Source of the DNA: a virus
Taxonomy: Duplodnaviria; Caudoviricetes
Virus record (IMG/VR): IMGVR_UViG_3300006879_000012
Span: 1 to 32,538 of that record
Direction: 5' to 3' (one strand)
Length of the DNA stretch: 32,538 bases
Position 1 is the stretch's first letter. Each line of letters begins with the position of its first letter. Positions 1,733 to 21,609 of this stretch are shown here, in pieces. The translations under genes were made by a program, and so were the position numbers. The notes under the pieces were generated by a model. The model made no database searches. It had not been told where the DNA came from and was given only the letters and a program-made list of their open reading frames with translations.

Positions 1733-2123
1733 ACAACACCACGACGAAGACGCAACCCCGCTCGCCGATACCCGCCGCGCCCAGATTGCCGCGCGGCGCT
1801 ACCGGCAAGAGTGTCGCGGCATCATCATCGCCGGCCTGCGCTACGCCACCGACCGCGCCTCGCAGGGGCGTATTACCAGTGCCGTGCTGGCCGCGCGCCA
1901 GGCGCAGGAGCTCGAGCAGCCCTTCAGCGTGCGCTGGAAAACAGCCGACGGCTGGGCCGAGCTGGATGCCGCCGGCGTCATCGCCTTTGGCAATGCCGCG
2001 CTTGCCTACGTACAGGCCTGCTTCGACCGCGAGCAAGCTCTGCTCGGCGCGCTCGAGGCCGGCACCTACACCGACGCCATGCTCGGCACCGGCTGGCCCG
2101 ACAGCGAGGTGCAGGCGCCATGA
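1725..2123 (+). CDS. DUF4376-like tail fibre assembly/accessory protein (132 aa)
   Basis: RBS CAGGAG at 1711. IAARRY..E..GI, TDRASQ, WKTADGW..LDA and VQACF.RE..L resemble the DUF4376 family found beside fibre genes. Confidence 0.75.
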   Translation: MAEQHHDEDATPLADTRRAQIAARRYRQECRGIIIAGLRYATDRASQGRITSAVLAARQAQELEQPFSVRWKTADGWAELDAAGVIAFGNAALAYVQACFDREQALLGALEAGTYTDAMLGTGWPDSEVQAP

Positions 2124-3460
2124 AAGTCACCGTCACCAATGCCGGCTTCGCCGCCCTGCCCTCCACCGCGGGCGGCGTCAGCGAGCTGCGCCTGGCCGAA
2201 GTCGCCCTCGGCCACGGCCAGGCCGCCAACGACCCCGCCACGACCGCGCTCGAGCACGAAGACACGCGCCTGCCCACCATTGCCGGGCAGGCGGTATCCG
2301 CGCGCGTCATTCATCTGGTGATCCGCGACCAATCTACTGCGGCCTACACCGTGCGCGAGTTTGGCCTGTACACCGCCGCCGGTGAACTGTTCGCGGTCTA
2401 TTCGCAGGCTGAACCGATCATCGAGAAATCGGCCGGCTCGACGCTGCTGCTGGCGCTCGACATCGACTTCGACAACATCGACGTCAGCGAGCTCACATTC
2501 GCCAGCATCGACTTCATCAACCCGCCCTGGTCGACCACGGTCAAAGGCGTGCTCAAAAGAGCCACCACCGCCCTCGCCGAAGGCCTGCGCGACAACACCA
2601 CCGGCATGACCCCGCGACGCACCGCCGATGCCATCGCCGCCTGGCTTGGCGCCCGCAAACCCGGCGCCGACGGCGGGCTCGACGCCGACCTGCTCGACGG
2701 CGAGCACGGCAGCTTTTATCGCGACGCCGGCCACCTGAACAAAGGCACTCTGCCGCGCGCGCGCCTGCCGCACGCCAGTGGCGCCGCCTACGGCGCCGTG
2801 CGCTTTGCCAGCACGGAGCAAGCCAAGGACGGGCGCAACAACAGCCGCGGCATGACTCCGAAACTGGTCGCCGACCTGGTCACGCGCATGCTCAACGAAC
2901 AGCGCAACAAAGACTGGCCCGTCGGCAGCATCTACTGCAACGCCGCCGACAGCACCAACCCCGGCCAATTCCTGCCCGGCACCTGGACGAAAATCAGCGA
3001 AGGCTTTCTCTACCCGCACGGCGCCGCCAGCGCCGGCAGCGTCGGCAGCACCGGCGGCGAGAAAGAAGTCAAGCTAACGGCTGGCCAAATGCCCAAGCAC
3101 ACGCACGGCGCCAGCACAAAAAATGCTGGCGGGCACTCTCACACGCGCGGCAGCATGAATATCACGGGGGCGTTCAGAACGCGCCTGTTCGAGAACGGGA
3201 ACAGAGCGGTATACAGCGCCGGGGGCGCATTTAGAGACGAAGGGAACAGTGGTGACAGCGCATTTAATACACTGGCTGCTGCTGGCGGCCAAGTAAAGAG
3301 AAGTCACACCACCTTTGACGCCCAAAGGTCGTGGTCAGGCAGGACAAGCAACAACGGGAGCCATAACCACAGCGTCACGGTAAACAGCGCTGGCGGCAGC
3401 CAGGCCCACAACAACATGCCGCCTTATGTCACGGTCTACATGTGGCGGCGCACGGCCTGA
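2120..3460 (+). CDS. Second tail fibre protein (446 aa): gpH-like N-terminal anchor, fibre repeats, T4 gp10/gp12-like C-terminal domain
   Basis: ATGA overlap start. Motifs: YTVREFGLYTAAGELFAVYS (P2 gpH N-term type), GLDADLLDG, WPVGSIY...PGTW, GGEKEVKLT..QMPKHTH, HNNMPPYVTVYMWRRTA. Confidence 0.88.
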   Translation: MKVTVTNAGFAALPSTAGGVSELRLAEVALGHGQAANDPATTALEHEDTRLPTIAGQAVSARVIHLVIRDQSTAAYTVREFGLYTAAGELFAVYSQAEPIIEKSAGSTLLLALDIDFDNIDVSELTFASIDFINPPWSTTVKGVLKRATTALAEGLRDNTTGMTPRRTADAIAAWLGARKPGADGGLDADLLDGEHGSFYRDAGHLNKGTLPRARLPHASGAAYGAVRFASTEQAKDGRNNSRGMTPKLVADLVTRMLNEQRNKDWPVGSIYCNAADSTNPGQFLPGTWTKISEGFLYPHGAASAGSVGSTGGEKEVKLTAGQMPKHTHGASTKNAGGHSHTRGSMNITGAFRTRLFENGNRAVYSAGGAFRDEGNSGDSAFNTLAAAGGQVKRSHTTFDAQRSWSGRTSNNGSHNHSVTVNSAGGSQAHNNMPPYVTVYMWRRTA

Positions 3461-8624: not shown

Positions 8625-9628
8625 TGCCCACGCTCACCGCCCGCCACCACGCCCAGGCGCCCGACTACCGCATCAGCATCGCCGGCCAGGCGATCACGCC
8701 GCGGCTGCGCCCACGCCTGCAGACGCTCGCCATTCGCCAGGCACGCGGCGAGGAGGCCGACGAGCTCACCCTCACGCTCGAGGATGCCGACACCCGCCTG
8801 CAACTGCCGCGCACCGGCGTCACTGTGCAAGTCGAGCTCGGCTGGCAGGGCCAGGGTGTGGCCACCATCGGCGAGTTCATTGTCGACGAGGTCGAGCACA
8901 GCGGCGCCCCGGACCAGGTCCACATCCGCGGGCGCAGCGCCGACCTGCGCGCCGCCCTGCCCGTGCCGCGCACGCACAGCTACGACAACACCACGCTCGG
9001 CGCCATCATCGAAACCATTGCCGGGCGCCACCAGCTCACGCCGACCATCGCGCCCAGCCTCGGCGCGCGCGCCATCGCCCACATCGACCAAACCGACGAA
9101 TCCGACGCCAACTTCCTCACCCGCCTTGGCGAACGCTACGACGCCATCGCCACCATCAAGCAGGCGCACCTGCTGTTTCTGCCCGCCGGACAGGCGCAAA
9201 CCGCCAGCGGCCAGGCCATGCCGCAACTCGCCATCAGCCGCGCCAGCGGCGACTCGCACCGCTACCGCACGACCGACCGCGAGCGCTACACCGGCGTCAT
9301 TGCCTACTACCGCGACACCGCCGCCGCCGAGCGCCAGCGAGTCACCGCCGGCAACACCGAAACCCGCCCCAAAACCCTGCGCGACACCTACCCCACGCAA
9401 GCCGAAGCCCAGGACGCCGCCAACAGCGCCTGGCGCAGCCTGCAGCGCAGCAGCCGCGCGCTGGAGCTCGCCCTCGCCCGCGGGCGGCCCACGCTGGCGC
9501 CGGAAACCCGCATCACGGTGCACGGCTTCAAAGCCGAGATCGACGCCATCGACTGGCTTGCCGTCGAAGTCGAGCACCGCCTCGGCCCCGACGGCTACAC
9601 CAACACGCTCAAGCTCGAGCAGAAATAA
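8624..9628 (+). CDS. D: Baseplate hub / late control protein gpD (334 aa)
   Basis: RGEEADEL.LTL.D, F.VDEVEHSGAPD, HIDQTDESDANFLTRL; TAATG coupling to U. Confidence 0.95.
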   Translation: MPTLTARHHAQAPDYRISIAGQAITPRLRPRLQTLAIRQARGEEADELTLTLEDADTRLQLPRTGVTVQVELGWQGQGVATIGEFIVDEVEHSGAPDQVHIRGRSADLRAALPVPRTHSYDNTTLGAIIETIAGRHQLTPTIAPSLGARAIAHIDQTDESDANFLTRLGERYDAIATIKQAHLLFLPAGQAQTASGQAMPQLAISRASGDSHRYRTTDRERYTGVIAYYRDTAAAERQRVTAGNTETRPKTLRDTYPTQAEAQDAANSAWRSLQRSSRALELALARGRPTLAPETRITVHGFKAEIDAIDWLAVEVEHRLGPDGYTNTLKLEQK

Positions 9629-9779
9629 CCCGCCCGGCCCAGCAGCGCCACGGCGCCCGCCAGCGCGCCGCAGCCGCGCCGCCCGGCTCACCCCACAGGC
9701 CAGGGGCGCGATCGCCCAGCACGCAGCCACACAGCGCGCCGCTTTGTTCCGCGTTTACGGAATTATTTCGCAAACCCCG

Positions 9780-9820
9780 TTGCATTCCGGTTTTTGTTCC
9801 TTATACTAGGAACTGCGGAA
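9780..9820 (+). promoter_or_regulatory. Sigma70-like moron promoter with overlapping inverted repeat (operator)
   Basis: TTGCAT(9780-85)-N16-TATACT(9802-07). The -10 is flanked by GTTCCT/AGGAAC, with outer TTCCG/CGGAA. Confidence 0.65.
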
Positions 9821-9863
9821 GGGCACAGGCCCGCCGCCTATCCGACTCACAAGGAGCGATTAA

Positions 9864-10184
9864 ATGACATACACAGCCCTCGGCATGCGCTTTGCCAGCC
9901 GCGCAGCCGCCATCCGCACGCTAACCGACGACCTTTTGTCGCTCGGCGGGCGCGATCCGGCCCAGGCCAGCAAGGAAGAACGCGTCTACGCGCGCATGCT
10001 CGCCCACATAGCGTTAGCTAATGACGAACACCGACAAAAAAAAAGCCCACCTGCGCCAGGCCGGCGAAGCCCTGTACGGCCAGCACTGGCAAGCCCCGCT
10101 CGCGGCCGATCTCGGCATCAGCGCGCGCAGCGTGCGCTACTGGCTCACGGGCGAACGCAACATCCCCCAAGGCGTGTGGCATGA
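9864..10184 (+). CDS. Hypothetical protein (only the N-terminal ~55 codons look credible)
   Basis: Strong RBS AAGGAG at 9851; the 3' half overlaps the HTH gene in another frame. Confidence 0.4.
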   Translation: MTYTALGMRFASRAAAIRTLTDDLLSLGGRDPAQASKEERVYARMLAHIALANDEHRQKKSPPAPGRRSPVRPALASPARGRSRHQRAQRALLAHGRTQHPPRRVA

Positions 10185-10272
10185 ACTGGCCACACTACTC
10201 AAGCAGCGCGGCCAGCACGCTCTGGCCCTGGCTGCAGAAATAGAATCTCAACTGGGAGCAACCGATGCTTAA
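10021..10272 (+). CDS. Small XRE-like HTH transcriptional regulator (83 aa)
   Basis: GEALYG..WQAPLAADLGISARSVRYWLTGERNIP is a helix-turn-helix pattern. Confidence 0.8.
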   Translation: MTNTDKKKAHLRQAGEALYGQHWQAPLAADLGISARSVRYWLTGERNIPQGVWHELATLLKQRGQHALALAAEIESQLGATDA

Positions 10273-10576
10273 CAAAACCATAGCCAAACTCTGCCTGGGC
10301 GCCGTTGCGGCCAGCTGCGTCACGGCCGCCCCGGCGCAGTCGGCGCAAGAACTGCTGCAGGCAGCCATCACCAAGCAAGGGCGCAGCTGCCCGCAGGTCA
10401 CGGCCATGCGAGGCTTTGCCACCACCGAAGACGGCACCCCGCTGCTTGCCGCCGCCTGCAGCAATGGCGATCGACACGTCGTCAAGCTGCTGCCCGGCGA
10501 ACGGCTGGAGTATATGTTCACGTGCGACGCCATAGAAGCGCGGGCGGACGTGAAGTGTTTTCCGTCTGGGCGGTAA
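10265..10576 (+). CDS. Small exported protein with signal peptide and 4 Cys in the mature part
   Basis: RBS GGGAG; N-terminal basic/hydrophobic segment ending in A-x-A-like sites; its stop lies inside the attC core. Confidence 0.7.
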   Translation: MLNKTIAKLCLGAVAASCVTAAPAQSAQELLQAAITKQGRSCPQVTAMRGFATTEDGTPLLAAACSNGDRHVVKLLPGERLEYMFTCDAIEARADVKCFPSGR

Positions 10577-10628
10577 TGCCGGAGTTCAGCGGTGAGCGTA
10601 GCGGATCCGCTGCAAAGACTTGTTAAAC
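10571..10628 (-). repeat. Integron attC site (58 bp), R' degenerate
   Basis: Minus strand: R'' GTTTAAC, 5 nt, L'' TTTGCAGC, 18-nt core, L' GCTGAAC, 6 nt TCCGGC, R' ATTACCG. Confidence 0.82.
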
Positions 10629-10647
10629 GACGACAGAAGGTAACGGC

Positions 10648-10872
10648 ATGAAGGAGTTAATCGAGAACATACGGGATGCGGCCAAGGATGCGCTTGCCGC
10701 AGAACGGAAATTGGATCGTTTGCATGACGGCCAGATCCGACGGATGCATGACGGCAGCATGACGCGAGCCCAAACGACGACGTACAACGCGCGGGCTTCT
10801 GAGGCAGCGACGCAACTGTCAGCAGCAGAGCGGGAACTAAAGGCGGCATGCAGGAAATACCTGCATGAGTGA
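10648..10872 (+). CDS. Hypothetical helical protein (74 aa), between two attC sites
   Basis: RBS-like GAAGG; amphipathic helical composition; internal LHDG/MHDG repeat; lower GC than the backbone. Confidence 0.7.
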   Translation: MKELIENIRDAAKDALAAERKLDRLHDGQIRRMHDGSMTRAQTTTYNARASEAATQLSAAERELKAACRKYLHE

Positions 10873-10879
10873 TGTTGCC

Positions 10880-10934
10880 GCCCAGCGCCTAAGCTGAGTT
10901 GCGCGCAAGCGTCAACTCCAGCGCACTGTTGGAC
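10880..10934 (-). repeat. Integron attC site (55 bp), R' degenerate
   Basis: Minus strand: R'' GTCCAAC, 5 nt, L'' GCTGGAGT (extra G), 15-nt core, L' ACTCAGC, 6 nt TTAGGC, R' GCTGGGC. Confidence 0.85.
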
Positions 10935-10950
10935 GACCACGGAGAATGAC

Positions 10951-11139
10951 ATGAATGATATTCAATTGAGGTGCCCAAAATGCGGGTTCTCGAAGATAGT
11001 CGACCCCGATGATACCGACCCACCGCATACAGCCGTTGTGGAGCTGCTTTGTCTGAATTGCGAGACAGGAACTTTTGCGGCGCCCCGGTATTTCGACATT
11101 GATGGAAATGAACTTAAACCGGTGTCGCTCAACATCTAA
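10951..11139 (+). CDS. Small zinc-ribbon protein (62 aa)
   Basis: CPKC...CLNC; RBS GGAG; stop inside ATCTAAT (minus-strand A|TTAGAT cassette core). Confidence 0.7.
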   Translation: MNDIQLRCPKCGFSKIVDPDDTDPPHTAVVELLCLNCETGTFAAPRYFDIDGNELKPVSLNI

Positions 11140-11160
11140 TATACGGCAACGGGCGGGCCG

Positions 11161-11847
11161 TCACCCGCCCATCAGGGCCAGCACAATAAGCACGGTCCAG
11201 CCGGCCAGAAAACCCCAACAGAAACTCGGCCAGTGCCAGCGGCGCTGGCCGCTTTGTTTGCGCCGCTTGCCGGATGCCGCGCGCAGGCGCTGCAACTCGG
11301 CCTCATTATGCGCGCCGGTGCGGGCCGCGATCTCTGCCTGGCGCGCCGGGCGCGGCGGCTTGCGCGTCGGCGGTGCCTGCTCGGGCTGTGGCGCGGGCGC
11401 GGCGGCCATGGCCTCGTCCGGCAACTCGCCCAGCTCCAGCAGCGTGACGAACTGCTCCGCATCCAGCACCGTCACTCCGCATTCCTGCGCCTGCGCCACC
11501 TTGCGCGCGCCCGCATTTGCGCCCGTGCACAGGAAATCCAGCGTATCCGACACCGTCCTGCGCACGCGCATGCCCTCGGCCATGGCGCAGTCTTCCAGAC
11601 GGTCGCGCTCGGCCTGTGCAAAGCCGGTGAACAGCACACTCAAATCGCCGCTGCGCCGCGCCGTGCGCAACAGCTCATCGCCGCCCTCAAGCCATTCGAG
11701 CACGCGATCCTTGCGAAAGGTGCGCACCATGCCATGGGCTTCGGAATAGCCGGAAAAGTGCGTGCCTTCGTCGCCGTAGTTGGTCAACGCCTGCTCCTTG
11801 ATCTCGCCGGCGCTGTTCTGATAGATGAAGCGGATTGGTTGTGCCAT
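11161..11847 (-). CDS. WYL-like + BRCT + C-terminal transmembrane protein (228 aa)
   Basis: F.Y.N..GE...RTFRKDRV (WYL-like); VLFTGF...TVSDTLDFLCTGANAGARKVAQA...GV.VL....F (BRCT); hydrophobic C-terminus; RBS GAGGGG. Confidence 0.8.
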   Translation of the reverse strand: MAQPIRFIYQNSAGEIKEQALTNYGDEGTHFSGYSEAHGMVRTFRKDRVLEWLEGGDELLRTARRSGDLSVLFTGFAQAERDRLEDCAMAEGMRVRRTVSDTLDFLCTGANAGARKVAQAQECGVTVLDAEQFVTLLELGELPDEAMAAAPAPQPEQAPPTRKPPRPARQAEIAARTGAHNEAELQRLRAASGKRRKQSGQRRWHWPSFCWGFLAGWTVLIVLALMGG

Positions 11848-11883
11848 GTTCCCCTCGTTGTTCGTGCATGAATGCGCCCGTCA

Positions 11884-12150
11884 TCAGGCCTCGGCCACCC
11901 GCCGGCACAGCTCGCGCAGCAGCTCCTCGTCCAGGCCGGGCAGGCGCTCGAGCAGGTAGCGTTGCTGTTCGCTGAGCTCGCTCGCGCATTGCCCGGCGAG
12001 CACTACGTTGCCATCGCCCACCACGTTGTTGTTGCCCAGAATGACAATGCCCGGCGGGCGCTCGCCCCCGTTGTTGTCGTCGCTGTTGAGAATTGCATCT
12101 TTAACCACGTTTCGTACCTTTTCGCTGATCCCTTCCAACGTCTCCCCCAT
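11884..12150 (-). CDS. Hypothetical protein (88 aa) in repressor operon
   Basis: Fills the gap between repressor and BRCT gene; GNNNVVGDGNVV segment followed by a helical tail. Confidence 0.55.
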   Translation of the reverse strand: MGETLEGISEKVRNVVKDAILNSDDNNGGERPPGIVILGNNNVVGDGNVVLAGQCASELSEQQRYLLERLPGLDEELLRELCRRVAEA

Positions 12151-12160
12151 AAATGGCGTG

Positions 12161-12658
12161 TCAGGACGCGCTGCGCACCAGGCGAATGATGTTGTCGCGG
12201 CTGGGCGGCGTTTGCGCGTCGGCATAAATTTCCACCAGCGTCACGACGAGATGCGCCTTGTTGTCGGGCGTCATGACACGTCCGGTTTCCGCTAGTGCCG
12301 ATTCAATCCCGGCGATGATCGCGGCCAATATATCGGAATCCACCGTGATCTTGGCGGCCGGTAGCGCGGCGGGTTCGGGCCGGCTTTCGCCTGCTTCCTT
12401 TGTGACCCGTTGCGGCTTTTTCGCGCTCGCCGCCGTACCCGATCCAAACATGAGCCAATCCAGGCTTTTTCCAGTCTTGCGGGCCACGATCGCGGCCGCT
12501 TCATACGGCACGCTGCCGCGCGTAATCGCATTCTGAATGGCGTTTGAGCTGTAGCCGACATAGTGCGACATGTCTTTTACGCTGCGCAGACCACACGCTG
12601 TTTTCATCCGTGCAACAACGGCTTTTGGCTCAATTTGGGTTTTTTTGTTGTCCGCCAT
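12161..12658 (-). CDS. CI-like immunity repressor (phage 186 CI-type N-terminal HTH), 165 aa
   Basis: V.RMK.ACG...RGSVPY...TGKSLDWLMFG; divergent from the early operon. Confidence 0.85.
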   Translation of the reverse strand: MADNKKTQIEPKAVVARMKTACGLRSVKDMSHYVGYSSNAIQNAITRGSVPYEAAAIVARKTGKSLDWLMFGSGTAASAKKPQRVTKEAGESRPEPAALPAAKITVDSDILAAIIAGIESALAETGRVMTPDNKAHLVVTLVEIYADAQTPPSRDNIIRLVRSAS

Positions 12659-12669
12659 GAAATAAATAT

Positions 12670-12778
12670 CTCGTATAGGGCTTGCATAAAGACCCGATAC
12701 GGGTTTATGCTCGGCCCTGTCGTTAGTTGTTATTGACAGTCTACACATGAAACACCCCGAACACGTAGCCGTATCGCG
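12670..12778. promoter_or_regulatory. Lysis-lysogeny switch: early promoter and operator-like repeats
   Basis: TTGCAT(12682)-N18-TATGCT(12706). Related 11-mers CCCTATACGAG (-,12670), CCCGATACGGG (+,12693) and CGCGATACGGC (-,12768). Confidence 0.6.
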
Positions 12779-12947
12779 CGCACCCAATGGTTGCAGCGCA
12801 TCCGTACAGGCTCAGGTCACGCCCGAGGAACGGGCGCAGATCCGAGCCCTGGCGTTCGCCGAATCCCGCAGCATGGGCGCCACGGCGCGCTTGCTCATCA
12901 TCGAAGCGTTGCGCGCCCGTGCAAACGGCTCGTGCAGCGCGAATTAA
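12747..12947 (+). CDS. Ribbon-helix-helix DNA-binding protein (Cro/Cox position)
   Basis: VQAQVTPEERAQIRALA..ESRSM...ARLLIIEAL; first gene of the early operon. Confidence 0.75.
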   Translation: MKHPEHVAVSRAPNGCSASVQAQVTPEERAQIRALAFAESRSMGATARLLIIEALRARANGSCSAN

Positions 12948-12959
12948 GGAGTAGTACCC

Positions 12960-13190
12960 ATGTACGCCGACCCGAACCGCGTGCGCGAGCCCTATGCCCG
13001 CCTGCGCCTGGACCGTTACGAAGCCAAGCTCATCGACTCGCTGGTCGAGTACACCGGGCTGTCGCGCGCCGAGCTGGTGCGCCAGCTGGTGCTCAACGAA
13101 GCCATGGATGTGTTGGGGCTGCAAACGTCTCATGCCTGCACCATGCCTTGCTCGACGCGCGAAAGCGCGGGCCAGGACAGTGCCGGTTGA
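12960..13190 (+). CDS. RHH-like phage regulator (MYADP family)
   Basis: RBS AAGGAG; LRLDRYEAKLIDSLVEYTG..RAELVRQL. Confidence 0.75.
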   Translation: MYADPNRVREPYARLRLDRYEAKLIDSLVEYTGLSRAELVRQLVLNEAMDVLGLQTSHACTMPCSTRESAGQDSAG

Positions 13191-20946: not shown

Positions 20947-20950
20947 CACC

Positions 20951-21175
20951 GTGACCAAATAGTGACACAAATATGTCCGCCAACGTCCAAATCAGTCACT
21001 TACAGTCACTCCAAGCCACACGACAAAGCATAACCCATTGTATTACCGAATGTTTTACGCGCCCTATGATTTCACACGGCAGGGGTCGCTGGTTCGAACC
21101 CAGCACCGCCCACCAAATCAAGCACTTACAGAGCATTTTTTTAGACTCAAAAGAACAGTGACCAAATAGTGACAC
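20951..21175 (+). repeat. attP arms: 18-bp direct repeats and IHF-like sites
   Basis: GTGACCAAATAGTGACAC at 20951 and 21158; WATCARNNNNTTR matches at 20990 and 21116. Confidence 0.8.
21071..21115 (+). other. attP core: 3' half of tRNA-Val(CAC)
   Basis: TTCACAC anticodon loop, GGCAG, GGGTC, T-arm GCTGG-TTCGAAC-CCAGC, ACCGCCC-ACCA. No 5' half upstream, so it is not a complete tRNA. Confidence 0.9.
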
Positions 21176-21273
21176 GTTTTGTCCGTTTGAGTCCCAATAT
21201 AGGTGCTGCACTAACCGTTGCTATCGAATAACACAAAGTACCGCGCACGCGCCACGCGCGCGGAGAAGCCGCA

Positions 21274-21609
21274 TTAAAAAATTTCGGCGTCGGAAAAGAG
21301 TAATAAAAGTGATGCAATGCCAGAAAATAGCGCAACCAACTGAAACAGCACAACAATACAAACAAAGCAAAAGGTAATAATTAAGTGATGAAAGAGTAAT
21401 ACATTACCTTTTGCAAAACGTGATTTGACCTCAAAACGACCCGTATAAAAATCAACGAGTTACGGCAAAAGGTGATGAATATCACTTTTGCATTACGCGT
21501 TTATTACCTTTTCAAATTTGCCAAAATATACTGGCCTGACAGAAGGTTATTGACGTCTCGCGCGACTCCATCACTATTATTACTCTTTTCCGACGCCGAA
21601 ATTTTTTAA
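21274..21609. repeat. AT-rich region bounded by a 41-bp inverted repeat with internal GTRAT iterons; probable replication origin
   Basis: 21274-21314 and 21569-21609 are reverse complements with 1 mismatch; multiple AAARGTRAT-like repeats; IHF-like site at 21450. Confidence 0.65.

Follow-up and report, generated by a model that had tools for sequence, protein, structure and literature searches.

A P2-like temperate phage carries, downstream of its gpD-like tail gene, two small genes that are each preceded by an attC site lying on the opposite strand. In its working the block resembles an integron cassette array, and it qualifies as a CALIN of two cassettes in which gene polarity is reversed; it is neither an array of canonical cassettes nor a complete integron. 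Its layout—attC pointing against the gene—is common in phage arrays and rare in bacterial ones. With moderate confidence, we read the block as a two-unit inverted cassette array of phage type that would have been assembled by an IntI integrase from outside the phage, entered an accessory operon at a stop codon, and partly decayed since.

The phage and its accessory slot

The stretch of DNA analyzed here, the window, is 32,538 bases long and constitutes an entire virus record, about 90% complete. It encodes P2-type capsid, terminase, portal, and tail sheath and tube proteins, along with a gpD-like tail protein, a cI-like repressor, a Toprim primase, a phage integrase and a diversity-generating retroelement. 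The Avd and reverse transcriptase genes of the retroelement (82–1732 and 1811–3460) adjoin a tail fiber gene. Past the integrase gene, at about 20950–21180, a stretch that by eye resembles the 3' half of a tRNA lies between two copies of a short repeat; ARAGORN found no full tRNA there. An intact attP is probable at this position, and the record may therefore be the excised form. Between the integrase and portal genes, at 21274–21609, a 41-nt inverted repeat, 98% complementary, flanks 254 nt of AT-rich DNA and may represent a MITE-like element or a packaging region.

The attC block is situated between gpD, which ends at 9628, and a convergent BRCT-domain gene (11847–11161). The features of this interval are:

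9780–9807, plus strand: promoter-like site, TTGCAT–16 nt–TATACT, matching the consensus at 8 of 12 positions; it may drive the accessory operon
10021–10272, plus strand: helix-turn-helix gene, 83 aa, upstream in the same operon and not attC-bounded; matches PHROG 12690 and 3626 and, weakly, Pfam helix-turn-helix families
10265–10576, plus strand: 103-aa gene from the ORF list, with a signal-peptide-like start, several cysteines, and a TAA stop inside the R' of attC1
10571–10628, minus strand: attC1, at the 5' end of ORF1; R'' GTTTAAC intact, R' ATTACCG non-canonical, crossover at 10577
10648–10872, plus strand: ORF1, 74 aa, a predicted helical hairpin (Atlas model) belonging to a small family in phage contigs
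10880–10934, minus strand: attC2, at the 5' end of ORF2; R'' GTCCAAC intact, R' GCTGGGC with its first base intact, crossover at 10886
10951–11139, plus strand: ORF2, 62 aa, a four-cysteine, zinc-ribbon-like protein of a widespread unnamed family
11127–11133, minus strand: GTTGAGC, an intact GTTRRRY core in the sequence, followed by no hairpin; probable outer boundary of the ORF2 unit
11134–11140, minus strand: ATTAGAT in the sequence, overlapping the ORF2 stop; the third core of the preliminary description and an alternative boundary
11151–11170, strand not assigned: GC hairpin found by folding, with a perfect 7-bp stem and no T tract, between ORF2 and the convergent BRCT gene

Moron slots of P2-like temperate phages, between the late tail genes and the immunity region, are variable and hold small, low-GC genes with a promoter-like site. 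The interval resembles them on all these counts. A preliminary description of the window had noted two lower-GC, single-gene units, and the GC contents of 0.57 and 0.52, against 0.66 for the genome, bear this out; the block ranks among the lowest 2.2% of same-size windows. In distant relatives, the gpD–BRCT interval is empty in one (L187) and filled in another (L185) by a pair of genes whose translations read as HicAB-like, from which we conclude that the interval is a variable accessory slot. Where it differs from these slots is in the attC sites that bound two of its genes: attC is absent from all 60 of the gpD-related P2-like loci compared, which, at 34–53% identity, are too distant for junctions to be mapped. 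No close relative was found with an empty site or with other cassettes. Blastn of the locus against 50,697 phage records returned no close relative, nor did searches by way of the 103-aa gene or ORF2, and the BRCT gene led to a single weak locus. An Rfam scan of 9000–13000 gave one irrelevant match (E 2.1).

Two real but degenerate attC sites

Read from 10934 to 10880, attC2 comprises the R'' GTCCAAC, 5 nt, an 8-nt L'', a 15-nt core, a 7-nt L', 6 nt, and the R' GCTGGGC. The L boxes pair at 7/7 positions in attC2 and at 6/7 in attC1, and extra-helical bases are present in both. When the entire window was scanned on both strands for this anatomy, attC1 and attC2 were the sole matches; dinucleotide shuffles (n = 100) yielded 0.45 matches per window, falling to 0.01 when a short paired core was required. 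A covariance model made here from 38 bacterial attC sites scores attC2 at 33.6 bits (E 6.8e-5) and attC1 at 30.0 bits (E 3.4e-4), with the next match at 8.6 bits. The seed sites were located via an attC1-derived pattern, which makes attC2 the more independent check on this model. The preliminary description had reported two minus-strand elements with full attC anatomy and intact R'' cores, and both points are confirmed; the covariance-model check that it proposed detects the native sites, with no need to restore GTT. Over 52 nt, attC1 is 85% identical to an intact phage attC in L040/L042. A pattern derived from attC2 found 13 viral matches, all due to chance and none matched by the model, and nothing in 401 bacterial genomes. 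What both sites lack is the conserved pairing of GTT in R' with AAC in R'': the R' begins GCT in attC2 and ATT in attC1. They are real attC sites, then, but degenerate ones. The alternative that the two sites are attC of normal orientation read on the plus strand was rejected on spacer lengths and the extra base, compared with bacterial arrays.

The two sites are 251 nt apart on the same strand, and a CALIN is defined by two or more attC sites that share a strand within 4 kb (PMC4889954, PMC9892861). A complete integron has intI, attI and Pc; intI is lacking here, as the preliminary description had it. The phage's sole tyrosine recombinase scores 30.8 bits against a cut-off of 265 (TIGR02249), a result that covers the 50 ORFs scanned in a record about 90% complete. 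The right end, set beside the stretches that precede intI-like genes in the comparison loci, showed no clear likeness to them.

At the outer edge, ATTAGAT had been taken for a third core. The covariance model has no match there, and ATTAGAT pairs with either R'' at 4/7 positions, whereas the adjoining, intact GTTGAGC pairs with the R'' of attC2 at 5/7. GTTRRRY occurs on the minus strand 0.8 times per kb. Judged by this pairing, the third core probably keeps its GTT. With an intact GTTGAGC at 11133–11127 next to ATTAGAT, the claim that all three crossovers have lost GTT is not established, and that each did so by a single transition fails on ATTACCG as well, which departs from GTTRRRY at 4/7 positions.

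The genes of the operon

The preliminary description had placed the genes under a phage promoter. The site at 9780–9807 is no more than promoter-like: a consensus promoter scan of 9600–13000 found no promoters, the site falling below its threshold. The hairpin at 11151–11170 is absent from the terminator list. Neither a family nor a homolog was found for the 103-aa gene, and a word-based protein search returned its own protein alone. Its GC3, 0.77, is nearer to that of the phage core than is that of either cassette gene, and with its TAA stop inside the R' of attC1, it is the likely target flank of the block.

Relatives of ORF1, 35–60% identical, occur in viral and metagenome contigs and share an invariant RAQTTTYNA. 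No attC was found beside any of them, so that mobility as a cassette is no more than a supposition for ORF1. Its Atlas matches score under 0.9, to generic helical-hairpin folds, and tblastn against phages and plasmids found no match. A very long ORF in a further viral contig (L007, about 2971–3165) contains the ORF1 motif as well; judging by this one sequence, the module may also serve as a domain of large proteins. The ORF2 family numbers 167 matches at E ≤ 0.001, itself included, with the cysteines conserved. The Atlas labels ORF2 YmcF-like at 0.95 on just 145 shared features, a lead only, and there is a weak NCBIfam CxxC match below cut-off. Tblastn of ORF2 against phages found no match, its profile over 278 comparison loci found the window's own copies only, as did a word-based protein search with ORF1 and ORF2, and it was not found in bacterial genomes (5, then 401), in searches that had no positive control.

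Both ORFs have Shine–Dalgarno-like leaders, and their plus-strand frames are conserved, as the two families attest; the earlier observation that the credible genes oppose the attC orientation thus stands. In a canonical cassette the gene is co-oriented with the attC top strand and the attC comes after it; here, neither is so. Looking for the two ORFs in integron arrays had been suggested, and no relative of either was found in any bacterial array. PADLOC matched neither ORF to any family at E ≤ 0.1, so the idea that the cargo is anti-phage gains no support. By analogy, the cargo would more likely serve the phage, in host take-over or counter-defense, than defend the host—counter-defense, if anything, because most of the cargo that could be named in comparable phage arrays consists of DNA methyltransferase, Mom-like and Lar-like genes.

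Polarity in phage and bacterial arrays

The attC1 pattern retrieved 34 viral loci, as well as 123 bacterial stretches from 5 of the 64 parts of the genome collection. Six of the viral loci lack AAC and were left out (L013, L014, L021, L026, L027, L028), and duplicate records were removed before loci were counted. Where a strong leader and a start codon stand beside the attC, the polarity of the gene can be called. On this basis 15 viral loci divide into 8 with the gene on the bottom strand of attC, 1 top and 6 uncalled, and 63 bacterial loci into 4 bottom, 20 top and 39 uncalled; among callable loci, that is 8/9 against 4/24 (Fisher p = 2.8e-4). Counted by unique sites, viruses have 15 bottom, 1 top and 17 uncalled, and bacteria 4 bottom, 26 top, 1 both and 67 uncalled. 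PHROG matches adjoining attC in 21 viral loci are antisense in 13, sense in 3 and lacking in 5, a count based on 140 hand-chosen ORFs of 417. The longest ORF per unit, a weaker measure, is on the bottom strand in 33 of 51 phage units (18 top) and in 5 of 26 bacterial units (21 top). The named cargo of the phage arrays consists mostly of DNA methyltransferases, joined by Mom-like, Lar-like, exonuclease and small terminase genes. The largest array, of ten attC sites, is in a 99% complete record without IntI.

Individual loci add detail. In a 132-kb viral record (L031, 325–2054), a restriction endonuclease and methyltransferase pair lies between two attC sites of opposite polarity: a normally oriented cassette inside a phage. 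Elsewhere, attC directly adjoins core phage genes, a small terminase gene in L043 (1226–1869) and an exonuclease VIII-like gene in L034 (1196–2542), placements that fit insertion at the ends of resident genes.

Relation to published arrays

Phage CALINs are already on record. Qi et al. (2023) described 17 of them in 10,705 phages, found methyltransferase cargo to be common, and showed that IntI1 recombined five of the six phage attC sites tested (PMC9892861). Our block resembles theirs: at least two attC on one strand, no integrase, small genes in between, and a phage as carrier; it differs in that its R' cores are degenerate. TJE1, a published phage CALIN that their text calls typical, has normal polarity. 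In another of theirs, MW202573 (L265, 2069–3738), all the annotated genes are antisense to five covariance-model matches by their GenBank strands, four sites scoring 19.8–41.4 bits and one 15.6. The accessible text of that paper does not discuss genes antisense to attC; its Figure 2 or Supplementary File S1 may show them (PMC9892861).

The attC family and anatomy here are those of bacterial arrays and CALINs, so far as the accessible parts of Cury 2016 (PMC4889954) and Nivina 2016 (PMC5027507) describe these. Intact arrays of bacteria and phages alike have complementary cores flanking each unit, and an IntI, if any, at the top-strand 5' end. Two things set the present block apart from the bacterial arrays there described: its genes are on the bottom strand of attC, so that attC precedes the gene, and expression would come from a phage promoter at the far end rather than from Pc. 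Nor is it like other known reversals. In the inverted-integrase group it is intI that is flipped, and in top-strand mis-insertion it is the whole cassette; neither is so here. Promoter-facing cassettes have not been seen in integrons, according to the accessible text of Nivina 2016, a statement that concerns whole-cassette flips (PMC5027507). In the portion available of a preprint by Loot et al. (10.1101/2022.09.11.507474), IntI acting in trans inserts cassettes at secondary GWT (attG) sites in E. coli, giving rise to SALINs and small CALINs. Many CALINs with just two cassettes are a shared trait; the cases there concern bacterial chromosomes and normal cassettes, whereas here the left junction is an ATT on a stop codon. 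A literature search, limited in its coverage of subscription papers, returned no description of inverted cassettes in phages. The accessible text of Cury 2016, Neron 2022, the Darracq preprint and PMC13323075 does not mention the layout either. 

Assembly and exchange of the units

If integrase joined the units of an array, the R'' of one site and the core on the far side of its unit should match. R'' is the perfect complement of the far-side core in 31 of 51 pairs in the other phage arrays and in 18 of 26 in bacteria, and of the same-site core in 5 of the 51; the other phage arrays bear, on these pairings, the apparent signature of integrase assembly. Core complementarity by itself fits cutting at R' and cutting at R'' equally; breakpoints can tell the two apart. 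Two phage loci, L038 and L181, are identical for 1997 nt and first differ 4 nt past the R' crossover base, after which they have different hairpin loops and genes. Homologous exchange could also yield this picture, because the leaders past R'' are alike for ~30 nt.

Of 27 viral records, two encode an IntI above cut-off, which shares the strand of the inverted genes and lies at the array's top-strand 5' end; none of the five records that are at least 90% complete encodes one. The two, both with inverted cargo on the same strand, are L022/L169 (G009), at 412 bits, and L170 (G019), at 347 bits; the match in G019 is spread across two frames.

Other contigs in runs X1–X3, the first two of which may be the source samples, carry near-identical copies of the window's attC2 with other flanks; these contigs are short. 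Among the pieces listed, five start to match attC2 exactly at 10886 and five at 10875–10879, while the others start deeper inside. AAC is intact in one flank, and a purine-rich leader and an ATG stand on the window's gene strand in three right flanks that differ from each other; a single contig has two attC2 copies 226 letters apart. The left neighbor of these copies changes at or near the crossover base, 10886. Contigs that match 10875–10939 also include tandem near-copies of attC2 with other genes, and a variant whose loop is 36 nt longer. A joint that skips ORF1 or ORF2 was not found in four runs, as read from contigs, which drop rare variants.

Wear and mobility

In the window, integration signals are worn. 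Core pairing across the ORF1 unit is 3/7, the lowest of 52 pairs, and because its far core is so poorly complementary the unit is not a clean cassette; across the ORF2 unit the pairing is 5/7 with GTTGAGC and 4/7 with ATTAGAT. GTT is missing from both R' cores, compared with 3/80 sites in other phage loci, the latter an undercount because the covariance model favors GTT. In attC1, the first position is a wobble, and the recombinogenic fold of the bottom strand lies 5.5 kcal/mol above the minimum. In attC2, the first pair is kept, the middle one is a G–T wobble (position 2, bottom strand), and the recombinogenic fold is within 0.8 kcal/mol of the minimum.

How much such changes matter can be gauged from assays of IntI1 in the accessible part of Frumerie et al. 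(PMC2811028). Only the first core base has to match between partners, a mismatch there lowering recombination 1,000–10,000-fold. Recombination falls about 6-fold when one partner has a paired GCT; with the middle base unpaired, the rate dropped from 2.2e-3 to 6e-6. On this basis attC1, with A as its first base and its unfavorable fold, looks now to be a poor substrate for IntI; attC2 is probably still usable, and excision of ORF1 between the two sites seems unlikely. Decay or a non-standard junction would have left most of the array immobile, and nothing indicates that locking was selected. The preliminary description proposed deliberate locking by three transitions, which does not agree with a third core that is probably GTT, a GCT that costs little, and a near-optimal fold in attC2. 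Selection for locking is in any case indistinguishable from drift, which would bring an integrase-free array to the same changes.

Origin of the block

In the reading we favor, the units were likely assembled by IntI supplied in trans from outside the phage. The mobile unit would be the crossover base, the hairpin, R'', a ribosome-binding leader and the gene, cut at R' in the standard bottom-strand reaction. A TAA stop reads TTA on the opposite strand and could have offered IntI a secondary target of the GWT kind. Insertion at this TAA would spare the upstream 103-aa gene and put the inverted cassette in line with the phage promoter, after which attC1 would have decayed to a poor substrate and attC2 probably remained usable. 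One point against insertion is unexplained: the first core base at the left junction is A, not G, which calls for later mutation or an A-type partner. That attC recombination is a route of moron acquisition, as first proposed, is plausible in view of the attC-bounded units and the variable slot; a relative with an empty site, which would bear it out, did not turn up.

The main rival, which we consider unlikely but take seriously, dispenses with integrase at this locus. The block would have been cut from the inverted array of another phage and have arrived by homologous or illegitimate recombination, with the attC sites as passengers and the outer cores there by chance. The 3/7 pairing of the ORF1 unit, the mismatches of ATTACCG to GTTRRRY, the lack of attC in all 60 related loci and the acceptance by the slot of genes without attC (in L185) speak for such a transfer, and illegitimate recombination is a route that Qi et al. 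(2023) raise for phage CALINs (PMC9892861). What it does not account for is the exactness of the edges: on the left, the 6-nt spacer is in register, core positions 2–4 pair with R'', and the whole falls on the stop codon of the upstream gene; on the right is an intact GTTRRRY, against its chance frequency of 0.8 per kb.

Less probable again is the model of the preliminary description, to which we give little credence: host cassettes captured through a host IntI, then locked in by selected loss of GTT at three crossovers, and carrying anti-phage genes. It has in its favor the GTT-less R' cores, as against 3/80 sites in other phage loci, itself an undercount, the absence of IntI from the phage, a first-base mismatch that, going by the IntI1 assays in the accessible part of PMC2811028, would block recombination of attC1 with attC2, and the frequent encoding of defense by integron cassettes (accessible text of the Darracq preprint, 10.1101/2024.07.02.601686). 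Capture from a host fits poorly, however, with a polarity of phage type, bacterial cassettes of the same attC family being mostly of normal polarity, and with relatives of ORF1 in phage contigs with no attC nearby. Locking fits poorly with the intact third core, with a cost of only about 6-fold for GCT, and with drift, which explains the changes equally well; and there is no PADLOC match to suggest defense.

A single A-type insertion strikes us as quite improbable. A two-gene unit whose outer attC began with A would have recombined with an ATT target, leaving the ATTs at 10577 and 11140 as the two scars of this event, between which excision could still take place. IntI1, in the accessible part of PMC2811028, needs equal first bases, whichever these are; ATT stands at both outer positions, ATT cores occur in 2/97 bacterial sites, and attC2 is nearly self-complementary (5/7 plus a wobble), as if never cut. 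Yet the R'' of attC1 ends in AAC, making the first pair a wobble and not the compensated pair of the assays, ATTAGAT pairs with this R'' at just 4/7 positions, and copies of attC2 elsewhere do switch neighbors at 10886. Last, the hairpins could owe their persistence to a role in RNA, as attenuators or as signals for processing or stability, with an attC likeness that is historical or incidental—each is just upstream of a leader and start codon, and stems have persisted while recombination cores decayed—but extra-helical bases, 5- and 6-nt spacers and chained core complementarity are features of DNA recombination, and we regard this as very improbable indeed.

Implications

Integrons are viewed as devices of bacteria and, of late, as repositories of anti-phage genes; attC sites found in phages are taken for rare captures. 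The phage arrays suggest that phages likely keep a pool of swappable cassettes of their own. We put forward, tentatively and with some doubt, that this pool works by integron chemistry in reversed polarity: attC would serve as the 5' leader of the gene, IntI of host or phage would swap the units, stop codons would be the landing places, and a cassette would be silent in a host integron, where it faces away from Pc. Taken alone, the present locus—short, worn, and with no empty-site relative—adds little. It is of value for the attC2 copies that its samples contain and as an instance of the layout in a P2-like phage.

If the polarity is particular to phages and assembly is of the integrase kind, phages would be acquiring and reshuffling accessory genes by the same recombination system as bacteria. 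This would provide a site-specific route of moron acquisition, a searchable marker (attC plus an antisense gene) for candidate counter-defense genes, and a test case for the first making of cassettes. If the proposal is true, phages would maintain a pool for counter-defense and host take-over, and hosts a separate one for defense, with one recombinase serving both, and the locus described here would show the phage pool spreading even to P2-like phages that have no array.
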